A stretch of 64,000 nt of DNA, taken from assembly GCF_003991155.1 (NCBI RefSeq), contig NZ_CP031294.1, one strand, 5' to 3'. Each line of letters opens with the position of its first letter. Position 1 is the first letter of the stretch. Both the position numbers and the translations under genes were made by a program. The DNA comes from Escherichia coli (GTDB lineage: Bacteria; Pseudomonadota; Gammaproteobacteria; Enterobacterales; Enterobacteriaceae). Positions 9,505 through 49,709 of this stretch are shown here, one piece after another. The notes beneath the pieces were generated by a model. That model was not told the origin of the DNA. It saw nothing but the letters and a program-made list of their open reading frames with translations, and did no database searches.

Positions 9505-9523
9505 TAAGTAAATACTTACCTAT
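9505..9523 (-). promoter_or_regulatory. L-type dyad motif
   Basis: TAAGTA-aa-TACTTA palindrome followed by CCTAT, upstream of the tail fibre gene. A GGCGGG/CCCGCC hairpin (9482-9502) lies between it and the ATG. Confidence 0.45.
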
Positions 9524-16418: not shown

Positions 16419-16445
16419 GATAGTAAATTAGTACTTACTTATCCA
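16419..16445 (-). promoter_or_regulatory. L-type dyad motif
   Basis: The gene strand reads GGATAAGTAAGTACTAATTTACTATCAT, upstream of the gpL-like gene. Confidence 0.4.
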
Positions 16446-22926: not shown

Positions 22927-22944
22927 AGTAAGTATATACTTACT
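22927..22944. promoter_or_regulatory. L-type dyad motif, perfect 18-bp palindrome
   Basis: AGTAAGTATATACTTACT is its own reverse complement, 50 nt upstream of the tail tube ATG. Confidence 0.5.
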
Positions 22945-28340: not shown

Positions 28341-29915
28341 TCACTCGTTCTCTTGAGTAGATGAGTCCCCATTCCCTCGGGGTTGATCTTGCCCGCTTTC
28401 TTGGGCTGCACCACGATCATAAGTAAGTACTGACTTATTTTCAAGGGTATTTAGATCATTTTTTGGAGGAAAATTCAAGAGATCTTTATCAAATTCCTTT
28501 TTCATCGCCTCAGTAATGTTCGGGAAAATCTTCTCAATAAGCATTTCCATCTGGTGACGACGTACAGAGTCCGGTGCCTGAAGTAATGACAGTTTCTCGG
28601 CAACAGAAAATTCATCAGTAAGGCCACGAATATCGAAACTTTCTGGATATGCAATTAAAGAGTGGTCTTCGTCCAGATCTACCCCCATCCATTTCGCAAC
28701 CAGTAGCATGATTTGGCGTTCAGCCCTTTCCAGACGCTCTGCTTTTGTGACAAGCAAGCTATTTACACGCTGGAAGTCATACATTTTTGCGGCACCAGAT
28801 GAATTATCGATTCCCTGTGCGTTGTCCTGCTTCGTTCGCTCACCAGCTACACCAACTGAATGGTAGATTTCGTTAATCACCGTCTTAATCGTAGTGATGA
28901 TCATCTGAGCTTGTTTCGGGTCTGGTGACAGATAAAACGGCTGGTTTCCACCTTCAGAATCGTAGGTGAAGACTCGCTTTGTGCCCATTTCAAGCACTTT
29001 AGTGTGGTTTTCATCACCAGGTAAAAGCGACTGTACCGGTATAGCCAACTGGCTAAATGTCTGATCCTGAATAATGGCATCAAGGTTTGACAGATAGTTT
29101 GCAACCGCACGATCAAGATAAGCGATATCATCGATCAACGATGGGCTGAAATACGGTGATTCACTTTCTCCAATACAATCAACAGGAAACACAGGAACTA
29201 CGCCGAGATTATGCTCACCGCTATCCTCTAAAATAACTTTTGCCTGACGGCGACCTGCTCCACCAGCGCCCTTCTTCACTTCCTCACGGAACAGATACCA
29301 CTCGTTTTGTGTCCACAGACGATAACGTTGGTATTCCTGACCTGTAGAAGTAAAAGGATCTGCGTCATCACGAGCGACTTCCACAATTAACGCCCACAAC
29401 ATATTCCCGTCGTCGTCCCATGCCACATCCAGCATTTGCTGAGGTGAAATCCAGTAGGCGTAGGCGCGAGCATCTTTCTTTTTCTCGTCAGCTACTGACT
29501 CAACATCACCACTCATCGTGCTATCGACAACAACCCATATGCGACCGTAAATAGACGACTGCAAATCAATAGCGGCCATAAATGAGTCAATAGAGGCATT
29601 CTGGCGAGTCGCACGTTTCCAGAAATTGCGGATCTGCTCTGGTGCCTCTTCGATATTTCTATGAATGTCTTCTTTAAAGAGATATTTGTTGATGAGGTTT
29701 ACCACCTCACGAGTGTGGTTGAAGCGATAAGCACGTTCAACTCGCTCCTTAAACTCCTGATCTCCCTCTTTAAAGTAACGAAAGATATTGTCTGTAAACC
29801 AACCACGCCCGCCAGCGTAAGTGCTGGCGAGGAAGTCCCAATGTTCTTTTTTCTTTTCGTATTCCGGGTGGCGTCGCGCCACCAGATCCTTAATTTGTTT
29901 GTCGTTCAATTCCAT
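28341..29915 (-). CDS. portal protein
   Basis: 524 aa, immediately downstream of the large terminase. Assigned by size and synteny. Confidence 0.7.
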   Translation of the reverse strand: MELNDKQIKDLVARRHPEYEKKKEHWDFLASTYAGGRGWFTDNIFRYFKEGDQEFKERVERAYRFNHTREVVNLINKYLFKEDIHRNIEEAPEQIRNFWKRATRQNASIDSFMAAIDLQSSIYGRIWVVVDSTMSGDVESVADEKKKDARAYAYWISPQQMLDVAWDDDGNMLWALIVEVARDDADPFTSTGQEYQRYRLWTQNEWYLFREEVKKGAGGAGRRQAKVILEDSGEHNLGVVPVFPVDCIGESESPYFSPSLIDDIAYLDRAVANYLSNLDAIIQDQTFSQLAIPVQSLLPGDENHTKVLEMGTKRVFTYDSEGGNQPFYLSPDPKQAQMIITTIKTVINEIYHSVGVAGERTKQDNAQGIDNSSGAAKMYDFQRVNSLLVTKAERLERAERQIMLLVAKWMGVDLDEDHSLIAYPESFDIRGLTDEFSVAEKLSLLQAPDSVRRHQMEMLIEKIFPNITEAMKKEFDKDLLNFPPKNDLNTLENKSVLTYDRGAAQESGQDQPRGNGDSSTQENE

Positions 29916-29926
29916 TTGAATAACCT

Positions 29927-29945
29927 TAGATAATTACTTACCTAT
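29927..29945 (-). promoter_or_regulatory. L-type dyad motif
   Basis: The gene strand reads ATAGGTAAGTAATTATCTA. It spans the TerL stop/portal start junction. Confidence 0.4.
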
Positions 29946-31198
29946 CGAGAACCACCAAGAATAACACGGTTTTTGACTGGATACCTACGATGTACTGGAT
30001 AGCCCAATGCGTCTGCACTATGCTCAATGCCACCTGTCTTATCCATATCTCGTGTTCCAGGCTTGTAGATGACTTTTTCCAGTGAATCAATCAAATGCTT
30101 GCACTTCGGATCGATATACAGCCGGATATCTCCAGATGCGGTCATCAGCATTCGGTTAACAGCATTAACACGATCCGCAATTGGCGGGTGCTTTTTCGAA
30201 TAATCGACACGTAAGAATCCCTTCTCTTTGAATATGTCGACGTCAGACTCCCCGCGAGCATGTTGGCGATAAGCACCTGCCGGATCTGGAAATACCGTTA
30301 TCTGTGATTTCCAGCGCCAGAAGCGTCTCTCAAGCTCATCACAAACCTCTGCCGTGTTAGAGGAAAAGAGCACCAATTCATCAATTGCCCATAGCTCACC
30401 ATTTGGCTGAGGTTGCAAAATTACTGAAGACATCGGGTCAATGTTGAAGTCCTGCCCTACCCATATAGGCAACCGAGGGTTGAACTGAAGCGGTTTTACA
30501 TGCACGTTACGATCGAACGGGTAGTAAACGCGCCCGGACATGTTCTCAAAGCTCGCCAGGTACTCCTGAGCGAACGATTTCGGGTCCATATCGTTCTTAG
30601 CAGCTTCAATTTCCGCCGTAGGTACAAACGGAGAATCGGCAGTTACAAACTGCCAGCTCTTCCACTGTCCCTTTCTTTGCAGCTCTACGTTCTGGCCTAT
30701 AGTCCACAGTTTGTGAAATTCCGAGAAGCCTTTTGGCGTACCAATGATCAGTGCACCGCCGCGTGTCGATGAAAGAGTAGGTCGTAACACCTTGTACCAG
30801 GTGTCAGCCTTCATATCCTGAAATTCATCAAGCACTACAAAATGCAACGCTACGCCGCGCAGAGTGTCAGGCTTATCAGCACCTTTGAGGGCGATCTCCG
30901 AACCGTTCTTCAACACGATTGTCATCGTGGTGTCGTTCTTTTTCCTAACCCACTTACGAGGCAGAACTTCCTGTAGATCGTCCCACAAAATCTGGCGAGC
31001 CATCTGGTAAGTAGGAGCGACATACCAGACTCTTTGCTTTTTTTCCTTTGCCGCCGCACGAATAATAGTGGAGATCGACAACCGGGATTTTCCCCAGCGT
31101 CGACCAGCACAAACAACTTTAAATCGATGCGGAGACTGGAAGACTTTCATCTGTCCAGAATGCAGTTGCACAAGACTGAGCGAGGACGGGATTGCCAT
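29942..31198 (-). CDS. terminase large subunit
   Basis: 418 aa. Walker A CAGRRWGKS, Walker B HFVVLDEF, C-terminal nuclease half. Start overlaps the TerS stop. Confidence 0.85.
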   Translation of the reverse strand: MAIPSSLSLVQLHSGQMKVFQSPHRFKVVCAGRRWGKSRLSISTIIRAAAKEKKQRVWYVAPTYQMARQILWDDLQEVLPRKWVRKKNDTTMTIVLKNGSEIALKGADKPDTLRGVALHFVVLDEFQDMKADTWYKVLRPTLSSTRGGALIIGTPKGFSEFHKLWTIGQNVELQRKGQWKSWQFVTADSPFVPTAEIEAAKNDMDPKSFAQEYLASFENMSGRVYYPFDRNVHVKPLQFNPRLPIWVGQDFNIDPMSSVILQPQPNGELWAIDELVLFSSNTAEVCDELERRFWRWKSQITVFPDPAGAYRQHARGESDVDIFKEKGFLRVDYSKKHPPIADRVNAVNRMLMTASGDIRLYIDPKCKHLIDSLEKVIYKPGTRDMDKTGGIEHSADALGYPVHRRYPVKNRVILGGSR

Positions 31199-31830
31199 TA
31201 TTCGTCCTCCCCTTCACTTCCATCATCTGTCGCATCAAATTCGCTTAGAGCTTCTTCTTCCAACGTCTCAAGCAATTCGTCATCGATGATTTCAGGCTCG
31301 TCGTCTTCCTGACGTAATTTCGCCACCTGGGAAGGCGTAAGCTCACCAAATACCAGGTTCGGAATTTCTTCCTCGTCATTTTCCGCATGATCCATGCCCA
31401 ATGCTTTGGACGAAACTTCAAAGCATTTTGCAAGGGTATTACTGGCTCTCTGTAAGCTCTTGAGAGAATCCTCAATCGCCCCTAAAGGCTTACCCTCACG
31501 TTTGGCCGTAGTGACTTCGACCATCACCATCTGCCCCAACGCATACGCCCAGCCGTCATAACGTGTACGACGTTCTTCTATCTTTTCCGCACGGGCTTTA
31601 GCGCGAAGCTCTGCGTCAGATTTAAGAGACTCACGAACCATCTTCCCAACAGAGTCCGCGCCTTTCTCTAATCCTCGCTTTTTGAAATGTCTGGAGAGTG
31701 TTTCACGACGAATGCCGTACTCTTCCTCCAGCTTTGAGAGTGTATATTCGCCTGACGTCCATTTGGCTTCAGCTTCGGCCCACTCCGCTGGTGTCAGGCG
31801 AGTTTTTACCTCGTCTTTTTCGACCGTCAT
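31198..31830 (-). CDS. terminase small subunit
   Basis: 210 aa. N-terminal HTH (YTLSKLEEEYGIRRETLSRHFKKRG), acidic C-terminus, directly upstream of TerL. Confidence 0.7.
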   Translation of the reverse strand: MTVEKDEVKTRLTPAEWAEAEAKWTSGEYTLSKLEEEYGIRRETLSRHFKKRGLEKGADSVGKMVRESLKSDAELRAKARAEKIEERRTRYDGWAYALGQMVMVEVTTAKREGKPLGAIEDSLKSLQRASNTLAKCFEVSSKALGMDHAENDEEEIPNLVFGELTPSQVAKLRQEDDEPEIIDDELLETLEEEALSEFDATDDGSEGEDE

Positions 31831-31870
31831 AGATCCCTCTAAAACACACAGAGCGCGTCCATGCGCTCTA

Positions 31871-31913
31871 AAACAACTTGTTTACTGCATCTGCTAACCA
31901 ACTTGTTTTCTGG
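31871..31913 (-). promoter_or_regulatory. E-type module, two half-degenerate copies upstream of terS
   Basis: AAACAACTTGTTT at 31871-31883 and CAACTTGTTTTCTGG at about 31898-31913. Confidence 0.4.
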
Positions 31914-31945
31914 GGTGTTTAATTAGGTCTGGCATGTCTTACGAA

Positions 31946-32002
31946 GCCTGCTTCCGTATATATTTAATAAGTTACTTATTATTTATATATACAGATGCAG
32001 GT
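31946..32002. repeat. 57-bp inverted-repeat element, copy 1
   Basis: Arms GCCTGCTTCCGTATATA / TATATACAGATGCAGGT (14/17 complementary) around an AT-rich spacer that holds the palindrome AATAAGT-T-ACTTATT. The left arm is identical to copy 2 at 62239. Confidence 0.8.
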
Positions 32003-32025
32003 CTTTAAATAAGCTCCCAGACCGA

Positions 32026-32292
32026 TTACATCACCAGTAACTTCGCTTTGGCTCGACCTAAAGTGGTTAACCCAAGAGTCCGGCGGTGATAGCGATTGTC
32101 ACTGCGTTGGCGCGTATGCCCTTTCTCCACCAGCCCCTTTTTTATCAGAGCGCGAATTGAGAACTGGATACTTTGCTTGGTTGTCTTGTACGGCAAAACT
32201 TCAAGCAATTCGTCCAGGTCAAGTAGATGACCTCGCTCATAACCGAGATTGAGCGTTTTGATGATGTCCTTTTGTTTGTCGGTTAACGTCAT
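32026..32292 (-). CDS. small winged-HTH protein (operon gene 5)
   Basis: 88 aa. TKQSIQFSIRALIKKGLVEKG is a recognition helix plus wing. RBS AAGGA. Confidence 0.6.
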   Translation of the reverse strand: MTLTDKQKDIIKTLNLGYERGHLLDLDELLEVLPYKTTKQSIQFSIRALIKKGLVEKGHTRQRSDNRYHRRTLGLTTLGRAKAKLLVM

Positions 32293-32301
32293 GGCAAATC
32301 C

Positions 32302-33192
32302 TTATGCCGGTAAAGCAATTTCTAACGGTTTATCCAAAGGTTGTTTGTCGAATGCCAGCAGTGGCAGCGTGTCAGGCAGTCGACGGCCAAAGTCAGGGTT
32401 TCGGTACACACCATACAACGGAGACGTAAAGCTCAGGTTGTGAATGTCCTTGAGCAGCTTCACAATGCTGGCCTCGTCCACCAGACTGTCGGCAATGTCC
32501 TGAATCGTCGTGCCACGATTCCGCCCAGCTTTTGCCAGGGAACTGTTCTTATGGTAGTCCGCCACCAAATCGCGCAGCGCACGGCGACGACGAGACTCGC
32601 TCATAGCGAACAACTCTTTGACGATCGCCTCGTTATCACCCGGGTCGGAGCGGAAATGGCGCTGGAACACACGCAGTGCACTTTCATAGCTCTTCGGTCG
32701 CTCAGGGCGGATGAACTTAAACCCTGCTTTCATGGCGAAGGGATTGTATTTGCTCATCGAGGACTGGATCTCAATGATTGGCCGGTCATGCATCCTGCTA
32801 ACCAGGTTAATCATTCTATAAGAGACGCCTACGCCACGATACTGAGTATCCACAACTGAGCGACTGATCACCGCAAAGTTGTTATTCACGTACCGACCCC
32901 AGTACTGGTTAGCCACGGTGGTATTAGTGGTTGGTTTCAACTTAGGAAACATGCGGTGGCGAGGTGCCAACAGTAGTTTCGGGTAAGCCATAACCACGAC
33001 GCCCACCAGACGGTCATCAAGTTCGCAGCGATAGTAAGTTGGCGCGAAAGGTTTGCCGTCTGTTTTGTAGTGAAGCGACTTAAGAGCGTGCCAGTCCTCT
33101 ACAGTTCCCTTTGTAACAGTCATTCGCTCCAGAAAGTCCAGATGACGCGGAAACTCTTCAGGGCGGTAGCGTTTAATGATGATGTCCGTCAT
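32302..33192 (-). CDS. GNAT-fold acyltransferase fused to an uncharacterised C-terminal domain (operon gene 4)
   Basis: 296 aa. GNAT motif A-like VVDTQYRGVGVSYRMINL. ATGA overlap with the upstream ATPase gene. Confidence 0.6.
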   Translation of the reverse strand: MTDIIIKRYRPEEFPRHLDFLERMTVTKGTVEDWHALKSLHYKTDGKPFAPTYYRCELDDRLVGVVVMAYPKLLLAPRHRMFPKLKPTTNTTVANQYWGRYVNNNFAVISRSVVDTQYRGVGVSYRMINLVSRMHDRPIIEIQSSMSKYNPFAMKAGFKFIRPERPKSYESALRVFQRHFRSDPGDNEAIVKELFAMSESRRRRALRDLVADYHKNSSLAKAGRNRGTTIQDIADSLVDEASIVKLLKDIHNLSFTSPLYGVYRNPDFGRRLPDTLPLLAFDKQPLDKPLEIALPA

Positions 33193-33854
33193 GAATGGAC
33201 CTCATCATGACTACCATTGTGATATTCCACCTTCACGCGTTCTTTGTAGTGCTTGGTGATCTGCATATCAGGGCGCAGCGCGTTCTTCAGGTCTTCGTGA
33301 GTCGTCGCCACCATTACCGTCGCACCAACCTTTCGAGCGGCACGCTGGAGGTTAGACGCCACAACCTGAGCGGTTACACGGTCGAGAACAGCGCCGAACT
33401 CGTCAGCAGCCCATACTTTAGCGCCTGACTCAATCAGTTTGGCAATCTTGAGACGATATTTCTGGCCGTCTGACATTTCAGAAGGCTTGCGAACAAACAG
33501 ATATGCATCGTTCAGACCAGCCATAGATAACAACCCAAGCGCATCACTGGTCGTTTTGCCCAACTGATCGATGACGTTAACCTCATTATCGAAGGTAAAA
33601 TCATCGATGGAGGCTACAGACAGCCCTTCATCCTTCATCTGTCGTTGCAACTCGCGCAGCACAACGGATTTGCCGGAACCGGATTGGCCGGTGATGTACA
33701 CCACATCGCCCTGCTTCACTTCCAGCTCCAGATTGTCGTAAAGCGTCCACTCTTTTTCGTCCAGGCCAAGCCCGAACGACTCAGCGATTTCCAACGTGCG
33801 CGTGGTTTTATTTACGCGTGTCTGAAACGATACGTTGATGATGTATTTGCTCAT
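33189..33854 (-). CDS. soluble ABC-type ATPase (operon gene 3)
   Basis: 221 aa. Walker A GQSGSGKS, signature-like MSDGQKYRL, Walker B VWAADEFGAVLD, H-loop TTHE. No membrane partner. Confidence 0.8.
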   Translation of the reverse strand: MSKYIINVSFQTRVNKTTRTLEIAESFGLGLDEKEWTLYDNLELEVKQGDVVYITGQSGSGKSVVLRELQRQMKDEGLSVASIDDFTFDNEVNVIDQLGKTTSDALGLLSMAGLNDAYLFVRKPSEMSDGQKYRLKIAKLIESGAKVWAADEFGAVLDRVTAQVVASNLQRAARKVGATVMVATTHEDLKNALRPDMQITKHYKERVKVEYHNGSHDEVHS

Positions 33855-34519
33855 GCAGCCATCTCCCCGGAAGAGATCTTCTCCGCATATGCCACAAATG
33901 CGTCTACCCCGCTTTCTCCCGTCATTTCTTCCATATGGGCAAGCAAATCACCAACAACAATGGCAGAGCCAGCAGGGAGCGTTTTAAAGCCCAATACGTC
34001 GACAACACGTACTTCTTCCGCTGCAACTTCACGACTGATCTCGGTGTGTTCATCCTTCTGTCGTTTAGTTTCTTCGCCAAGATCGATAACTAGCGAGTCG
34101 GTGTCCATTTCTTCTGTCATACTGCCAACGAGAACATTCAACTCACGCTCTTCAAAGCCGAAAACCTCGATATCGTCCAGAACAAGCGACTCAAGCTCTT
34201 TCTGTAGCTTAATTGCATCGTAATCAATGCTGGCAAGTCGGTTATCTTCAAGGCGCTTCGCACGAACCTCGTCATCACTGAGATCATCGCGAACAATAAC
34301 CGGTACGCGCTCAAGTCCAGCAAAAATTGCAGCCTCACGGCGGCCGTGGCCAGTAATAATTACGTCGTTCTTATCGACCGTAATTGGCTGGTCAAATCCG
34401 CGCTTTTTAATGGCTGCGGCTAGATCTCGGATCTGCTGTTCATCATGCTTTTTGGCATTCATCTCATAGGGAATAAGATCTGCCGGGTCGCGATATACGA
34501 TTTCAAACTTTTTGGTCAT
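33851..34519 (-). CDS. ParB/Srx-like nuclease-domain protein 2 (operon gene 2)
   Basis: Start set to ATG 34519 (AAGGAG 8 nt upstream, TAATG overlap). The motif IITGHGRREAA is the ParB-box-like GxxRxxA. Acidic C-terminal half. Confidence 0.7.
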   Translation of the reverse strand: MTKKFEIVYRDPADLIPYEMNAKKHDEQQIRDLAAAIKKRGFDQPITVDKNDVIITGHGRREAAIFAGLERVPVIVRDDLSDDEVRAKRLEDNRLASIDYDAIKLQKELESLVLDDIEVFGFEERELNVLVGSMTEEMDTDSLVIDLGEETKRQKDEHTEISREVAAEEVRVVDVLGFKTLPAGSAIVVGDLLAHMEEMTGESGVDAFVAYAEKISSGEMAA

Positions 34520-35199
34520 TACATACGCTCCTTGTAGTAGTCGACCAGCCACACCAGAGCCTCACCAGCGTTCTCCATTTCATTACCGGTGTTAATAGCC
34601 TGCTCTTTGATGATGTTTTTTATGGTTTCTGCAACACGATCTGACGCATCGAAAGTTACTTTGAAGCGCATGGTCTGATGTTCCGCACCCACACGTTCGG
34701 TTTTCTCTCGTTTGTCGGTATCGACAGGCTCATCACTACCACGAGACAACGCCTCCAGTGCTTCAAGGTCGATTGCCGCCTCTTTTGCTAAAACCATCGA
34801 GATTTCGTCGTCATACGGAGCGATTTCAGACAGTTGATAGTCAAGTTCTGACTGAATTTCTTCAATGAAGCGTTGCAATGCGATTTGGTCGTCTTCACCG
34901 TATCGCTCGTTGTCCACCAGTGACATCTGTTTAGCTACGACATCGCTAATTTTGCCCACAGAAAGCACCGGAACCGTTGAAATTCCTTGCTCAATAGCAG
35001 CACGCCAGCGATGTTCGCCGCCGAGGATTTCAAAAAATCCATCTTCAAGTTCACGAGCCAAAATTGGCTTAAAAAAGCCCAATTTTTCGATAGAACCTTT
35101 CAGTTTTTCAAAATTCTGCGCACCAACCGAATTGGTGTTCCAGGTATTCGGGCGAAGGTTGGCAACATCAACCTGCAAAATCGTGATTTTTACATCCAT
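34519..35199 (-). CDS. ParB/Srx-like nuclease-domain protein 1 (operon gene 1)
   Basis: The motif ILGGEHRWRAA is the ParB GERRxRA box. The start could be ATG 35199 or GTG 35217, and neither has a strong SD. Confidence 0.7.
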   Translation of the reverse strand: MDVKITILQVDVANLRPNTWNTNSVGAQNFEKLKGSIEKLGFFKPILARELEDGFFEILGGEHRWRAAIEQGISTVPVLSVGKISDVVAKQMSLVDNERYGEDDQIALQRFIEEIQSELDYQLSEIAPYDDEISMVLAKEAAIDLEALEALSRGSDEPVDTDKREKTERVGAEHQTMRFKVTFDASDRVAETIKNIIKEQAINTGNEMENAGEALVWLVDYYKERM

Positions 35200-35216
35200 T
35201 TTATTGCTACAATCCA

Positions 35217-35236
35217 CTAAGTAATCACTTACTTAT
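35217..35236. promoter_or_regulatory. L-type dyad in the divergent control region (ParB operon / helicase)
   Basis: CTAAGTAATCACTTACTTAT is followed by TATAAT (plus strand) and overlaps TATTATAAT on the minus strand. Confidence 0.45.
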
Positions 35237-35281
35237 TATAATAGCCAAATAACATACAAAAGGCACTAAGGAAAGAGGTTT

Positions 35282-36841
35282 ATGACTGTTCGGATTGTAT
35301 CTAACGCAGTAAATGCGCTTATTTCTGGCGCAGATGACAAGGTAAAGCAACTGGTGCAGCAAATGTTGAGCTACGAAGTCGAGACTGGCGACTGGAAGGG
35401 CACAAGCACGATGTTCAACTGGAGTAAAAACTCGTTCCCTGCTGGCTTTGCCAAGCCTGTAGCGGCGAACTTGAACAAGGCGGGCATCAAATGTGTTCAT
35501 ATCCGCAAAGACAAAGCCCCGGCGCTTGGTAAACCAAATCCTGCGGTTAACCCATTCCCATACAATCCTGATTATGCGTATCAGGATCAGACTGTGGAAA
35601 CACTGGTTCGAGAGGGAATGATGATTGCGCAGATCGCTACTGGTGGCGGGAAATCTAACGTTGCCTGCAAAGCAGCTGCACGTATCGGTCGAATGACATT
35701 ATTTTTAACAACCCGCTCTGTTCTGATGTTTCAAATGGCCGAAAACTTCCAGAGATCCATCGACTACCGCGCCGAAAATGGCGAACCGTGGTTAAAAGAC
35801 CAAAAGGTTGGAGTCATTGGCTCGGGTGAGTTCCAGGTATCACGACATATCAACGTCGCTACAGTTCAAACTCTTGCAAGTTTCCTCGAAGAACCACCAC
35901 GCGATGCAACACCAGATAAGAAAAGCTACCACCTCAAACGTCGGGAGTTGGTGAAACGCTTCCTTTCAAGTGTCTCTCTTCTTATTCTGGAAGAGGCGCA
36001 TGAGTCTTCAGGCTCAAATTTCTATGACATCGCCAGATTATGTGTGAACGCAGACTATCGTCTGGCGCTTACAGCCACGCCGTTCATGAAGGATTCGACG
36101 GAAGCCAACATGCGCCTGATGGCGGTGGCCGGGCGAATTGAAATTAAAGTCACAGAAAAGTACCTGATTGATCGAGGCATTCTGGCAAAGCCGTACTTCC
36201 TTTATCATAAAGTTGCCTACAAGCCAGACGAGGCCAGAATCAAGGCCGAACTTGCCAACAAACACCTCAATTTTAGAGTTGGTATGAGCACCGCCTACCA
36301 AAAGGCTTATCAGTTGGGGATCGTGTATAATTTGGGACGTAACGAGGCCATAGTGCGCGAGGCATTGCTTTATAAGCAACATTCACTCAACTGCATGACT
36401 CTGGTTCGTCTTAAACGCCACGGGCAAATCCTGATGGAGATGATGAAGGAGTCAGGTCTTAAAGTTGATTTCATCTATGGGGAATCTAACCAGACGACAA
36501 GGCAAGCAAAGCTGAATAGTTTAGCGTCTGGTGAAATAGATGTTTTAATAGGCTCGACTATTCTGGATGTTGGTGTTGATGTGCCAAGCGTTGGTGCGGT
36601 CATTCTTGCTGGTGGTGGGAAAGCAGAAGTTGAAATGAGACAGCGTGTCGGTCGTGGCTTACGAGCCAAAAAAAATCAGGCAAACGTGTGTTTTATCACC
36701 GATTTCATTGACATTAGCAACAAATACCTGTTGTCTCACTCTTATGAGCGAAAACACATCATCGACACCACACCTGGCTTTGCAGAAGGTGTATTGCCTA
36801 TTGATGGAGCATTCGATTTTGGAGTTCTGAAACGAGATTAG
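35282..36841 (+). CDS. SF2 DEAD/DEAH-like helicase (type III restriction Res-like fold)
   Basis: 519 aa. Motif I ATGGGKSNV, motif II LILEEAHES, motif VI QRVGRGLR. Confidence 0.85.
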   Translation: MTVRIVSNAVNALISGADDKVKQLVQQMLSYEVETGDWKGTSTMFNWSKNSFPAGFAKPVAANLNKAGIKCVHIRKDKAPALGKPNPAVNPFPYNPDYAYQDQTVETLVREGMMIAQIATGGGKSNVACKAAARIGRMTLFLTTRSVLMFQMAENFQRSIDYRAENGEPWLKDQKVGVIGSGEFQVSRHINVATVQTLASFLEEPPRDATPDKKSYHLKRRELVKRFLSSVSLLILEEAHESSGSNFYDIARLCVNADYRLALTATPFMKDSTEANMRLMAVAGRIEIKVTEKYLIDRGILAKPYFLYHKVAYKPDEARIKAELANKHLNFRVGMSTAYQKAYQLGIVYNLGRNEAIVREALLYKQHSLNCMTLVRLKRHGQILMEMMKESGLKVDFIYGESNQTTRQAKLNSLASGEIDVLIGSTILDVGVDVPSVGAVILAGGGKAEVEMRQRVGRGLRAKKNQANVCFITDFIDISNKYLLSHSYERKHIIDTTPGFAEGVLPIDGAFDFGVLKRD

Positions 36842-36843
36842 TT

Positions 36844-37122
36844 ATGAGTGAAAAGAAAACAACTTACTGTCAGGTAGCATTGTCTGATAAGGCCAATGAC
36901 AAACTTGGAAAGTTTCAAGTGAAACTAAAAGAAAAAAATATCAAAATGTCTAAGGCTGAAGTCATAAATACCATTCTGGAACAATTGACAATGGCCGACT
37001 TTGACAAGGTTATATCTTCTGTCGGGGCTTCCGCTAAGACTCGTGAGAAAATCATGCGTATCTATGAGAACTCTAATATGACAAAGGAAGATCTCAAAAC
37101 GCTATTAAGCAGATTAAAATAA
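36844..37122 (+). CDS. small RHH-like protein
   Basis: 92 aa. The pattern TYCQVALSDKANDKLGKFQVKLKEKNIKMSKAEVINTILEQL fits strand-helix-helix. Confidence 0.45.
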   Translation: MSEKKTTYCQVALSDKANDKLGKFQVKLKEKNIKMSKAEVINTILEQLTMADFDKVISSVGASAKTREKIMRIYENSNMTKEDLKTLLSRLK

Positions 37123-37148
37123 TCACGCTATCAATTAGGGAGACAAAG

Positions 37149-37613
37149 ATGAAGTCTCCCATACTGTTCACTTTCTGTTCTAAAACTATCATGAAATACT
37201 CGCTTCTCCCTCTACTAACGTTACCAGTGTTGATGCTTGCCGCGTGCCAATCACACCCAATATCAATCCATGACGCCAAACCAGCACCGCAGGCCAAAGT
37301 GTTCAAGTATCAAAGCGCAGCGCCAGCTACGTTGGTGGTAATGAGAGACACAGGTTTTGTAGGAGCTGGATGTGATGCTTCCATTTTCATCAACGGCGAA
37401 ACTGTCGCAAAACTGGCTACAGGCGAAAAAGCGACTTTCCATTTAAATGCCGGAGAATTAATTGTGGGTGCATCTCTTGAAGGTGCAGGTTTATGTGCTC
37501 TAAACCCCGCTCGTCAAGAGCGAGAAACGACTCTGAAGAATGGAGACACAAAAGCGTTCAGGGTGTTTACCAGCAATTCTGGTGACATCGACATTCTGCC
37601 AACAACTCTGTGA
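37149..37613 (+). CDS. lipoprotein (possible surface/exclusion function)
   Basis: Signal with lipobox LMLAA|C (..LLPLLTLPVLMLAAC). RBS GGGAGA 5 nt upstream. An alternative start lies at 37191. Confidence 0.65.
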   Translation: MKSPILFTFCSKTIMKYSLLPLLTLPVLMLAACQSHPISIHDAKPAPQAKVFKYQSAAPATLVVMRDTGFVGAGCDASIFINGETVAKLATGEKATFHLNAGELIVGASLEGAGLCALNPARQERETTLKNGDTKAFRVFTSNSGDIDILPTTL

Positions 37614-42744: not shown

Positions 42745-42760
42745 GTAAGTATGTACTTAC
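42745..42760. promoter_or_regulatory. L-type dyad motif
   Basis: GTAAGTA-tg-TACTTAC. Confidence 0.45.
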
Positions 42761-48608: not shown

Positions 48609-49709
48609 ATGAGCGAGTCCAAATCGCCGGATGCCCTGAGAGCAATGGTAGCCGGTACGCTGGCTAATTTTCAGCACCCAACCCTGAAACACAACCTGAC
48701 TACGCTTAAAGCGTTACACCATGTTGCGTTGATGGATGACACACTGCATGTCGAACTAATCATGCCTTTCGTGTGGAATAAGCCTTTTGAAGACCTGAAA
48801 GAGCAATGTAGTGGTGATCTGCTCCGTATCACTGGCGCAAAGGCTATTGACTGGAAGCTGTCGTACAACATTGCCACGCTTAAGCGCGTCAAAAACCAAC
48901 CAGGCATTAATGGCGTTAAGAACATTATCGCCGTCAGCTCAGGCAAGGGCGGCGTGGGTAAATCCTCCACGGCGGTAAACCTGGCACTGGCGTTGGCTGC
49001 TGAAGGTGCGAAAGTTGGTATTTTGGATGCCGATATCTATGGTCCATCAATTCCAACCATGCTGGGCGCGGAAAACCAACGTCCAACCTCACCTGACGGT
49101 ACTCACATGGCACCTATCATGTCTCATGGCCTGGCAACCAACTCTATTGGTTATCTGGTCACCGACGACAATGCAATGGTGTGGCGTGGACCGATGGCCA
49201 GCAAGGCGCTGATGCAGATGTTGCAGGAAACTCTATGGCCTGATCTGGACTATCTCGTTCTCGATATGCCGCCGGGCACTGGTGATATTCAGTTGACGCT
49301 GGCGCAGAACATTCCTGTAACTGGTGCGGTTGTGGTAACTACGCCGCAAGACATCGCGCTGATCGATGCGAAGAAAGGCATTGTGATGTTCGAAAAAGTC
49401 GAAGTGCCGGTACTGGGTATCGTCGAAAACATGAGTGTGCATATTTGCAGTAACTGCGGTCATCACGAGCCAATTTTTGGCACCGGTGGCGCACAGAAAC
49501 TGGCCGAGAAATACAACACGCAGTTGTTAGGCCAAATGCCACTTCATATCTCTCTTCGTGAAGATCTGGATAACGGAACACCAACCGTTATTAGTCGTCC
49601 AGATAGCGAATTTACGGCTATTTATCGTGACCTCGCAGATCGCGTTGCCGCCCAAATGTATTGGCAAGGTGAAGTAATACCTGGCGAAATCGCATTCCGC
49701 GCAGTGTGA
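48609..49709 (+). CDS. apbC: Fe-S cluster carrier ATPase Mrp/ApbC
   Basis: 366 aa. P-loop SSGKGGVGKS and the CSNCGHH motif. Divergent from metG, as in enterobacterial chromosomes. Confidence 0.95.
   Translation: MSESKSPDALRAMVAGTLANFQHPTLKHNLTTLKALHHVALMDDTLHVELIMPFVWNKPFEDLKEQCSGDLLRITGAKAIDWKLSYNIATLKRVKNQPGINGVKNIIAVSSGKGGVGKSSTAVNLALALAAEGAKVGILDADIYGPSIPTMLGAENQRPTSPDGTHMAPIMSHGLATNSIGYLVTDDNAMVWRGPMASKALMQMLQETLWPDLDYLVLDMPPGTGDIQLTLAQNIPVTGAVVVTTPQDIALIDAKKGIVMFEKVEVPVLGIVENMSVHICSNCGHHEPIFGTGGAQKLAEKYNTQLLGQMPLHISLREDLDNGTPTVISRPDSEFTAIYRDLADRVAAQMYWQGEVIPGEIAFRAV

Follow-up and report, generated by a model that had tools for sequence, protein, structure and literature searches.

ParB-like proteins that lack a DNA-binding domain activate phage thymine dioxygenases on double-stranded DNA (dsDNA) (PMC13229309), DpdB assists DpdA (PMC12839542), and the ParB-like DndB and the ABC protein DndD act in phosphorothioation (PMC10853773). 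The dsDNA-modifying GNAT Mom is expressed late; it possesses a positive cleft, and its helical insertion is essential (PMC13219725). Here, we examine an operon that brings together two ParB/Srx-fold proteins, a soluble ABC ATPase, a GNAT-fold acyltransferase-like protein and a small basic protein, and which lies within a 64,000-nucleotide stretch of Escherichia coli contig NZ_CP031294.1 (hereafter, the window), itself part of an SSU5-type phage-plasmid of ~108 kb. The proteins constitute a conserved, motif-intact ParB/Srx, ABC ATPase and GNAT machine, and several independent lineages of phage show it in linkage with genes for terminase and replication. By analogy with known DNA-modifying enzymes, we tentatively favour a reading, albeit one that we would stop short of calling probable, in which the products of the operon would act as a single multi-protein machine on phage DNA late in infection, through the ParB-assisted, ATP-driven transfer of an acyl or aminoacyl group to that DNA around packaging. 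The genes of the operon are as follows:

34519..35199, minus strand: ParB1, 226 residues; ParB/Srx fold, with the nucleotide-binding domain at the N-terminus and the C-terminal half very acidic
33851..34519, minus strand: ParB2, 222 residues counted from the ATG within TAATG; a second, distinct ParB/Srx-fold protein
33189..33854, minus strand: ABC ATPase, 221 residues; soluble, of the transporter nucleotide-binding domain (NBD) type
32302..33192, minus strand: GNAT-fold acyltransferase-like protein, 296 residues; strongly basic
32026..32292, minus strand: basic protein of 88 residues, putative winged helix-turn-helix (HTH); last gene of the operon

Read directly from the sequence, the junction between the ParB1 and ParB2 genes is a TAATG overlap, those between the ParB2 and ABC genes and between the ABC and GNAT genes are both ATGA, and a gap of 9 nt leads from the GNAT gene to that of the 88-residue protein. 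An earlier note on this DNA had described five coupled minus-strand open reading frames (ORFs); all are present with the overlaps and gap that it gave, as is every motif that it quoted. For comparison, 30 loci from alpha-, beta- and gamma-proteobacteria were used, 28 from one-genome-per-species contigs and two obtained by protein look-up. In every related locus that reaches that far, the order is a divergent helicase gene, then ParB1, ParB2, ABC, between zero and three small inserted genes, GNAT, the putative winged HTH gene (where present), TerS, TerL and portal, and the identity of the GNAT protein drops to 37% across these syntenic loci. Of the related loci, 26 continue beyond the GNAT gene without being near-identical to the window, and 22 of these have the gene for the 88-residue protein. 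The same gene set is kept both in related loci and in other phages, and its members are also found naturally joined, as ABC::GNAT and ParB::ABC::GNAT fusions; the kept order and the fusions together bear out the earlier suggestion that the five genes form a functional unit. Separately, we observe that the ABC–GNAT gene junction is a hotspot for insertions: SSU5 has an extra gene of 84 residues at this point (L004 1235-1489), phage nickie has one of 111 residues (L207 5646-5981) and a relative from Ectothiorhodospira has three (L002 8961-9999), which include Phage_gp49_66 and RyR-domain genes.

The fusions are numerous and varied. A profile search of 1.84 billion representative proteins returned 939 relatives of the GNAT protein, many of which are ABC::GNAT fusions of 450-500 residues, corresponding to the COG2401 architecture, which is dominant among the distant homologues; when 148 listed representatives were scanned with hidden Markov models from the window's lineage, an ABC–GNAT architecture was seen in 64. 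Both the ABC and the GNAT parts encoded in the window are homologous to the fused proteins and have consensus motifs in common with them, which places the pair in COG2401, and the families phrog_293, phrog_886 and phrog_11143 cross-match. Four proteins are ParB::Zn-ribbon::ABC::GNAT fusions (P0195, P0216, P0225 and P0228), the N-termini of which match the ParB2 family (hhalign probability 98%, E 2.8e-13), and a DNA-polymerase-B::ABC::GNAT protein of 1,260 residues is encoded in a phage replication module (L114/L115 10001-13783) and found on many contigs. Further fusions, 880-910 residues in length, begin with a DnaA-like P-loop domain (PHROGs, E 1e-11 for one of them), which is followed by a PD-(D/E)xK nuclease-like motif recognized by eye; assignment of this P-loop to the terminase or A32 type was rejected, as Pfam gave only E ~0.02 and PHROGs indicated a DnaA-like initiator. 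P0198, P0174, P0168 and P0155 are among the ABC::GNAT proteins of unusual architecture. Within P0168, the ABC domain is interrupted by an intein with a LAGLIDADG domain, and P0155 carries a C-terminal TFIIB repeat, which suggests that the family has archaeal or archaeal-virus members.

The linkage to terminase recurs beyond the immediate relatives of the window. TerL adjoins the ABC–GNAT gene, or lies one gene away from it, in at least four phage lineages. In a separate, metagenomic lineage, represented by 80 loci in IMG/VR, the fused gene lies immediately downstream of TerL, and in the same orientation, in 45, and in 31 no further gene follows it before the contig ends; a ParB was not detected in the vicinity of the fused gene in these 80 loci, which make up the largest fused lineage. 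In one prophage (L117/L118), TerL is followed by ABC::GNAT and then by host genes, and a further locus (L201) has, in order, an 88-residue ORF, ParB::ABC::GNAT, a 158-residue ORF, TerL, portal and MuF. In Gordonia phage Yago84, gp1 is a ParB protein of the same PHROG as ParB1, gp2 is an ABC protein of phrog_11143 (an ABC-plus-acetyltransferase family) and gp4 is the terminase; an acetyltransferase-like C-terminus was detected directly in another phrog_11143 protein, gp86 of Rhodococcus phage Jace. Additionally, one copy of the module lies among two DNA methyltransferase genes.

The ABC protein has all of the motifs that are diagnostic of the ABC ATPase superfamily: the Walker A motif (GQSGSGKS), the signature ([LM]SDGQ), the Walker B aspartate–glutamate pair (AADEF), the D-loop (LD) and the H-loop (TTH) are invariant in 29 sequences, and Pfam ABC_tran is matched with E 5.8e-13 (50 bits against a cut-off of 25). 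Its nearest sequences in the PDB are transporter NBDs, and the ABC-F and PhnK/L types are among its NCBIfam matches. No cognate permease or substrate-binding protein is encoded in the operon, and neither the ORF list nor Pfam revealed a membrane-protein gene between 32026 and 36841. The fusion partners of the ABC protein are GNAT, ParB and DNA polymerase B, but never a permease, and fusion to GNAT is seen in hundreds of its homologues.

Because sequence-family searches gave nothing usable, the placement of the 296-residue protein derives from structure prediction. Its best Pfam match, to Acetyltransf_10, is below threshold (E 0.037; 14.4 bits, with the cut-off at 23.6), and NCBIfam, PADLOC and the PDB (phmmer and family profile) yielded no usable match for it. 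A clustered protein database yielded 341 homologues, and an AlphaFold2 model was obtained from a 51-homologue alignment with a mean predicted local distance difference test score (pLDDT) of 88.7 and a predicted template modelling score of 0.81. This model has the beta-sheet with the beta4-alpha3 pyrophosphate-binding loop of a GNAT fold, such that the earlier assignment to this superfamily holds for the fold and not for the sequence. The loop itself reads R119-G-V-G122-V-S, in which R119 and G122 are invariant, and a helical insertion of ~90 amino acids (residues ~165-255) precedes the last conserved strands (Y260-G-x-x-x-N265-P). The region of the insertion is also conserved in the fused relatives, some of which reach Acetyltransf_1 or Acetyltransf_7, albeit weakly. 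The protein has an isoelectric point (pI) of 9.8. Mom is among the best structural matches of the model in the PDB and BFVD, a Mom homologue being the second-best match among the predicted viral structures of the latter. A coincidence in numbering between R111 and S124 and functional residues of Mom was dropped, as no alignment supports it. The structural matches also include a viral protein annotated as 'aspartate 1-decarboxylase' (BFVD A0A8S5PZ92), and in phage Jace an aspartate 1-decarboxylase gene directly follows the pair encoding ParB and the ABC-acetyltransferase (L206 7125-7550). The product of aspartate 1-decarboxylase is beta-alanine; this link may point to the donor or to CoA metabolism, or may simply stem from faulty annotation.

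Both ParB proteins exceed the curated cut-off of Pfam ParB_N (26.3 bits), ParB1 with 50 bits (E 3.2e-13) and ParB2 with 35 bits, and with this match, the ParB/Srx fold and the conserved Box-II arginine, they belong to the ParB/Srx superfamily. Across 29 members of the lineage, the GG-x-HR and DN-x-RYG motifs of ParB1, which also matches phrog_723 (E 1e-78), are invariant, and the GHGR and R-x-x-DN[RK] motifs of ParB2 are kept. ParB2 most resembles the ParB domain carried by ParB-methyltransferase fusions of phages (phrog_498 at E 5e-32; PADLOC MTase_II at E 2.9e-17). The likeness of the ParB2 structure model (pLDDT 82.5) to PadC, KorB-N and sulfiredoxin is confined to the nucleotide-binding domain, and no canonical HTH DNA-binding domain is recognized in the model. 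Both proteins are acidic, with pI 4.5 (4.55 for ParB1), and their C-terminal halves have pI values of ~4.2; with these acidic C-terminal halves, and in ParB2 with no canonical HTH, they are unlike centromere-binding ParBs, and resemble the ParB activators of phage thymine dioxygenases. No ParA-type partner ATPase adjoins the two genes, the neighbouring ATPase being the ABC protein with its LSDGQ-type signature. A 366-residue protein encoded elsewhere in the window (48609-49709, plus strand), which is annotated as 'septum site-determining protein MinD' in Escherichia phage Cyrano, was considered as the missing ParA and rejected: its relatives are annotated as Mrp-like, it has no match in SSU5, and it is probably not a conserved partition ATPase.

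Judged from their sequences, the proteins look catalytically competent. The GNAT fold is predicted with confidence, its motif A is conserved, and the ABC and ParB/Srx motifs are invariant, all of which argues for an enzyme and not a relic. The folds, the intact catalytic motifs, the obligatory co-occurrence, the natural fusions among ParB, ABC and GNAT and the repeated linkage to terminase and replication genes are direct observations, from which we infer that the substrate is DNA, together with the group transferred, the roles of the subunits and the timing proposed below. Action on DNA is suggested by the fusion partners (ParB, DNA polymerase B and the DnaA-like domain), by the neighbours (terminase and methylases), by the basic character of the GNAT protein and by the methylase-type ParB domain. 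Moreover, from the likeness of ParB2 to the ParB-methyltransferase fusions, it follows that the ABC–GNAT pair would occupy the position of the DNA methylase.

In the mechanism that we propose, the two ParB/Srx proteins would probably pair in the manner of a heterodimer, with their acidic tails contacting partner proteins instead of DNA, and the pair would serve as an NTP-gated activator or loader, as for other DNA-modifying enzymes. Binding and hydrolysis of ATP by a dimer of the ABC ATPase could then hold the GNAT subunits to duplex DNA like a clamp, or shift their position on it, and there the basic GNAT protein would transfer a group from an activated donor, either acyl-CoA or, as with Mom, an aminoacyl-tRNA. 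The 88-residue basic protein might contribute to site recognition or to regulation of the operon. The presumed targets are bases in the phage genome, reached shortly before packaging or in the course of it. In its most specific form, which is possible although we consider it unlikely, the system would represent a novel DNA acylation or aminoacylation, in which a ParB-activated GNAT driven by the ABC ATPase adds a non-methyl group to bases at replication or packaging. It would also be widespread, extending over the SSU5-type phage-plasmids of Enterobacteriaceae, with plasmids of Y. pestis, Salmonella and Klebsiella among them, the phage-plasmids of Acinetobacter, Nickievirus, rhizobiophages and actinobacteriophages, and would have been masked by labels such as 'partition protein' and 'ABC transporter'.

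The earlier note had arrived at DNA modification by analogy with Mom, and the fold, neighbours and fusion partners make this the best-supported reading, albeit an unproven one. Several considerations weigh against it. The analogy does not extend to sequence: hhalign of the family profile detects no relation to Mu Mom (probability 0.2%), nor does the same profile find one to any solved GNAT in the PDB. In the searchable papers, no modified base is reported in SSU5-like phages, and SSU5-like plasmids have been sequenced routinely without remark on modification, although in the prophage state the operon may not be expressed. The substrates of most GNATs are proteins or small molecules, and likeness of fold cannot predict the substrate, as the authors of the Mom study themselves say (PMC13219725). 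The ABC domain is of the transporter-NBD type and not of the DNA-binding SMC/MutS/UvrA type. Furthermore, ParB is not essential to the core activity, being absent from the largest fused lineage, and adjacency to terminase fits a role in packaging equally well.

The operon is flanked by a divergent helicase gene on one side and by the packaging genes on the other, and the features of this neighbourhood, together with the sites of a dyad that recurs in the window, are as follows:

35282..36841, plus strand: SF2 (UvsW-like) helicase, 519 residues (Pfam ResIII, DEAD and Helicase_C)
35200..35281, between the helicase and ParB1 genes: divergent control region
31947..32001, in the gap between the operon and terS: palindrome, candidate cos/pac site or bidirectional terminator
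31849..31870, minus strand: terminator-like hairpin from a consensus scan, ~20 nt upstream of the TerS-like start codon
31198..31830, minus strand: TerS-like DNA-binding protein, 210 residues (phrog_867, E 2e-100; terminase small subunit in the Cyrano annotation)
29942..31198, minus strand: terminase large subunit (TerL), 418 residues (Pfam Terminase_6N, Terminase_3 and Terminase_6C)
9505-9518, 22929-22942, 28420-28437, 31968-31978, 35218-35235 and 42746-42759, mostly intergenic: dyad sites

Terminator-like hairpins such as that listed are pattern matches only, and as many were found as would be expected by chance. A scan of 31000-37500 against Rfam gave no match. The five genes head a long minus-strand run that extends to ~1600 and takes in the TerS, TerL, portal, capsid and tail genes. 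The operon had been described as ending just upstream of terS; the TerS-like gene, with its start at 31830, is indeed next, at a separation of 195 bp. In three related loci, the TerL ORF is ~750-840 residues long or split, as against ~420 residues (L089 10944-13193, L094 11024-13540 and L103 10709-13487), which is compatible with an intein or other insertion in the terminase.

Within the SSU5-like lineage, the helicase is a conserved divergent neighbour, as it occupies the same place in every related locus that is long enough; in the other lineages, outside the SSU5-like one, it is absent from beside the module, and the helicase, which the earlier note had described as sharing a control region with the operon, does not form part of the wider module. 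In distant relatives, a gene of the dCMP/cytidine deaminase family lies a few genes past the helicase on the same strand (L001 4695-5183; L002 3108-3569), and Cyrano encodes, elsewhere in its genome, ThyX, DHFR, MazG-like, RNR and adenine methyltransferase proteins. At the other end of the operon, the winged HTH assignment of the 88-residue protein (pI 10.2) is weakly supported, since every match is below threshold: LexA_DNA_bind is matched with E 0.072, Sta1/Lrs14 with E 0.0025-0.004 and a CARF-associated PADLOC model (CARF3--CARF, aligned at the C-terminal end of the model) with E 4.5e-5. The protein belongs to phrog_900 (E 2e-45), a family to which no function is assigned.

The control region between the helicase and ParB1 genes, which had been given as 64 bp, measures 82 bp (35200-35281) from the ATG at 35199, and 64 bp only from an upstream GTG at 35217. 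The dyad noted there previously, TAAGTAA-TCAC-TTACTTA, is present at 35218-35235, as are the back-to-back TATAAT boxes, which arise from the palindromic ATTATAAT at 35235-35242 and read TATAAT on both strands. A generic sigma-70 scan called no promoter in the control region, because the -35 elements are weak. A related arrangement, TATAAT-AAGTAAG...CTTACT, is kept in relatives as far as Acinetobacter. The dyad is one of a family, TAAGT-N(0-10)-ACTTA, for which there are seven matches at six sites in the window, compared with 0.55 matches expected by chance, and with six such sites the dyad type is not specific to the operon. Several of the dyads take the form of the 14-bp palindrome TAAGTAnnTACTTA, and TAAGTAAG(T) recurs at 16434, 43894 and 60719. 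From its sequence, the dyad family looks like a genome-wide operator or promoter element, and the 88-residue basic protein is a candidate, though only that, for the factor that binds it.

The palindrome at 31947-32001 spans 55 bp and consists of inverted repeats I1 and I2; its base is GC-rich, its top is AT-rich and TAAGT-T-ACTTA lies at its centre. As single-stranded DNA, it has a folding energy of -14 kcal/mol (z -6.2 relative to shuffled sequence). Its architecture is kept in relatives even though the sequence differs, and distant relatives have comparable palindromes and dyads both in the control region and in the gap before terS. In GenBank, the SSU5 and Cyrano records both open inside the palindrome, 1 nt apart, and for this reason it may be a cos or pac site. 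If so, the virion chromosome would have the operon as its final transcription unit, at the right end, and terS and terL would lie at the left end.

Together with the control region and the helicase gene, the operon forms a 4.8-kb region that is 98-99% identical to the corresponding region of the Escherichia phages Cyrano, PhiR41_1 and CMS-2020a, 83% identical to that of Salmonella phage SSU5 and ~80% identical to those of SSU5-like elements from Klebsiella. Among 5,426 complete E. coli genomes, the operon is present in 247 (4.6%), always on plasmids, and the GNAT protein is encoded on 966 plasmids in PLSDB (Klebsiella 341, Escherichia 206, Acinetobacter 147, Enterobacter 90, Yersinia 62 and Salmonella 49). 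Those from Yersinia include Y. pestis plasmids of ~100-138 kb (H89, H90, H93 and H94), on which the GNAT protein has 99% amino acid identity to that of the window; the module is retained, then, on plasmids of the size of the virulence plasmid pMT1. To our knowledge, a Y. pestis virulence plasmid of this size is not known to behave as a phage. The module is also carried by Stenotrophomonas, Rhizobium and Xanthomonas phages (~106-120 kb), by actinobacteriophages (of Gordonia, Rhodococcus and Arthrobacter) and by integrated prophages. Stenotrophomonas phage DLP3, whose DNA resists 15 restriction enzymes, is not among the listed carriers and was left unused as support. The whole block, inclusive of the helicase, TerS and TerL genes, is present in Pseudomonas phage nickie (Nickievirus), and a Nickievirus isolate is reported to be lytic, to lack lysogeny genes and to have predicted 3' cos ends (PMC8537276). 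Since the block occurs in phages that are predicted to be lytic, the module is not a plasmid function.

The foremost rival explanation, which we regard as unlikely and yet as a serious contender, is that of a packaging accessory: in place of modifying bases, the machine would have the packaging apparatus or the cos/pac site as its target. The ParB/Srx proteins could nick or mark the terminus, ParB/Srx domains being capable of nicking activity (PMC5512222), and the ABC–GNAT pair could acylate or remodel TerS, TerL or portal, and thereby time or license cleavage and translocation. The module adjoins TerS/TerL in at least four lineages, often with translational coupling, the operon is at the head of the long morphogenesis array, and it ends at the large palindrome in which two related records open, a likely terminus. 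However, all of the lineages examined have a TerS-like gene, which hence is not replaced by the module, and the DNA polymerase B and DnaA-like fusions, located in replication modules far from terminase, are hard to explain in these terms; we also know of no packaging system with a GNAT or an ABC ATPase. The repeated adjacency to terminase, accordingly, keeps alive the packaging role that the earlier note had entertained, and we rank DNA modification above it. More doubtful still is a part in host takeover or counter-defence, whereby an ABC-powered GNAT would inactivate a nucleoid protein, a nuclease, a charged tRNA or a signalling nucleotide during lytic growth. GNATs of phage conflict systems are usually predicted to be protein modifiers (PMC5512222), GNAT toxins that acetylate aminoacyl-tRNA are cited in PMC13219725, soluble ABC proteins of the transporter type often act on ribosomes or enzymes (consistent with the NCBIfam matches mentioned above), and the element also encodes tRNAs and MetRS. 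Nevertheless, genes for counter-defence are normally variable and found in early or accessory regions, whereas this block is core, and both its fixed position beside terminase and the fusions to ParB, DNA polymerase B and DnaA-like domains point to DNA.

Plasmid partition, with the two ParBs as centromere-binding proteins and the ABC ATPase standing in for ParA, is what RefSeq, PHROGs and the phage-plasmid literature imply when they label these genes as partition ParBs, and SSU5 'parB' serves as a marker gene. We nonetheless consider it very improbable. No conserved ParA was found elsewhere in the element, which would leave room for such a substitution, and the repeated dyads could be binding sites; yet the lack of an adjacent ParA and of a recognizable HTH in the ParB2 model, along with the strongly acidic C-terminal halves of both proteins, disfavours the segregation role that had been suggested for the operon. 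The block is, furthermore, found in predicted lytic Nickievirus, in phages of Gordonia, Rhodococcus and Arthrobacter and in integrated prophages, and partition would leave the obligatory GNAT, the fusions and the linkage to terminase unexplained. Against partition, too, Y. pestis pMT1 is reported to use a P1-type parABS system. The least likely of the alternatives, to which we give hardly any credence, is a cargo for defence or superinfection exclusion, also raised in the earlier note. ParB/Srx proteins, ABC ATPases and GNATs do all occur in defence systems, but a search of all components with PADLOC 2.0 identified no system and returned generic matches only: the ParB domains matched MTase_II, the P-loop of the ABC protein matched mad3/mad8 and PtuA and the helicase matched PbeA, those to mad3/mad8 and PbeA being weak. 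The GNAT protein has no match among the PADLOC models, and no known defence system has the same composition. Instead of occupying a variable island or hotspot, the block is a fixed core by the packaging genes, and neither its place nor its gene content changes over a very broad lineage; it is also found in virulent phages, and it runs in the orientation of the late genes. Such probability as remains beyond DNA modification and these rivals belongs to something else.

The proteins are systematically misannotated at present. The GNAT protein is mislabelled as 'ABC transporter ATP-binding subunit' (PHROG 886, SSU5 and nickie), a ParB homologue as 'DNA modification methylase' or 'DNA methyltransferase' (in PhiR41_1 and in nickie, where gp158 is the ParB2 homologue), and ParB1 is labelled 'ParB/RepB/Spo0J family partition protein' in RefSeq entries for E. 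coli plasmids. Whatever the chemistry turns out to be, the 'partition ParBs' and 'ABC transporter subunits' of these annotations are corrected to parts of one terminase-linked machine, and the uncharacterized COG2401 family gains a concrete, testable context. If DNA modification is the true function, this would be the second GNAT-based phage DNA-modification chemistry after Mom, and the first to need an ABC ATPase and ParB-like partners, and it would extend an emerging rule whereby ParB-fold proteins activate DNA-modifying enzymes. The module is found, too, in phages that are considered for biocontrol or therapy, and because it is common, any effect on restriction evasion, transduction or sequencing signal would have practical reach.

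No system of the same composition is described in the searchable literature, in agreement with the earlier note, although an earlier in silico mention is possible. Among the closest known counterparts is COG2401 ('MK0520'), an ABC ATPase fused to a predicted acetyltransferase, of which the ABC and GNAT proteins of the window represent a split form; here, they are encoded by separate, translationally coupled genes, and the same operon supplies two ParB/Srx proteins and a small basic protein as well. The annotations of Cyrano and JGI already use the COG2401 name, and we found nothing on the function, substrate or genomic context of this family in the searchable literature. ParB-methyltransferase fusions are commonly encoded just upstream of terminase genes. 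The ParB domain of these proteins (phrog_498) is strongly like ParB2, but their effector is an S-adenosylmethionine-dependent methylase in place of the ABC–GNAT pair, and ParB is duplicated and unfused in the window, and fused in the four Zn-ribbon proteins described above; the B. cereus ParB-methylase, cited in PMC5512222, is an example. With Mom of phage Mu, which modifies adenine in dsDNA using Gly-tRNA(Gly) as the donor, the window's protein has the GNAT fold, in its case a predicted one, in common, but no similarity between sequence profiles, and Mom works by itself, without a ParB protein or an ATPase.

The Dnd, Dpd and ParB-dependent thymine dioxygenase systems follow a common logic, in which a ParB/Srx protein, sometimes together with an ABC ATPase and a small DNA-binding protein, supports a post-replicative DNA-modifying enzyme. 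Thus, Dnd comprises the ParB-like DndB and the ABC ATPase DndD in addition to DndACE, and Dpd pairs DpdB with DpdA. In contrast to the operon described here, none of these systems has a GNAT as its primary enzyme, and DndD is an SMC-like ABC protein with a coiled coil, whereas that of the window is a compact transporter-type NBD. Relative to ParABS, both of the window's ParBs retain, at the N-terminus, the nucleotide-binding domain with conserved Box-II-like arginines, but there is no adjacent ParA, ParB2 has no canonical HTH, the C-termini are acidic and the module occurs in phages that are not plasmids. A mechanistic parallel, with the comparison at the level of the GNAT fold, is offered by TmcA/NAT10, in which a GNAT coupled to a P-loop ATPase acylates the exocyclic amine of a nucleobase, N4 of cytidine in RNA being acetylated. 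The ATPase of TmcA is helicase-like and not an ABC protein, and its substrate is tRNA or rRNA. TmcA/NAT10 is cited in PMC13219725 as well. Overall, we tentatively place the module with the ParB-assisted machinery of nucleic-acid modification, and its ABC::GNAT core as a fusion that has long been known as an uncharacterized COG.

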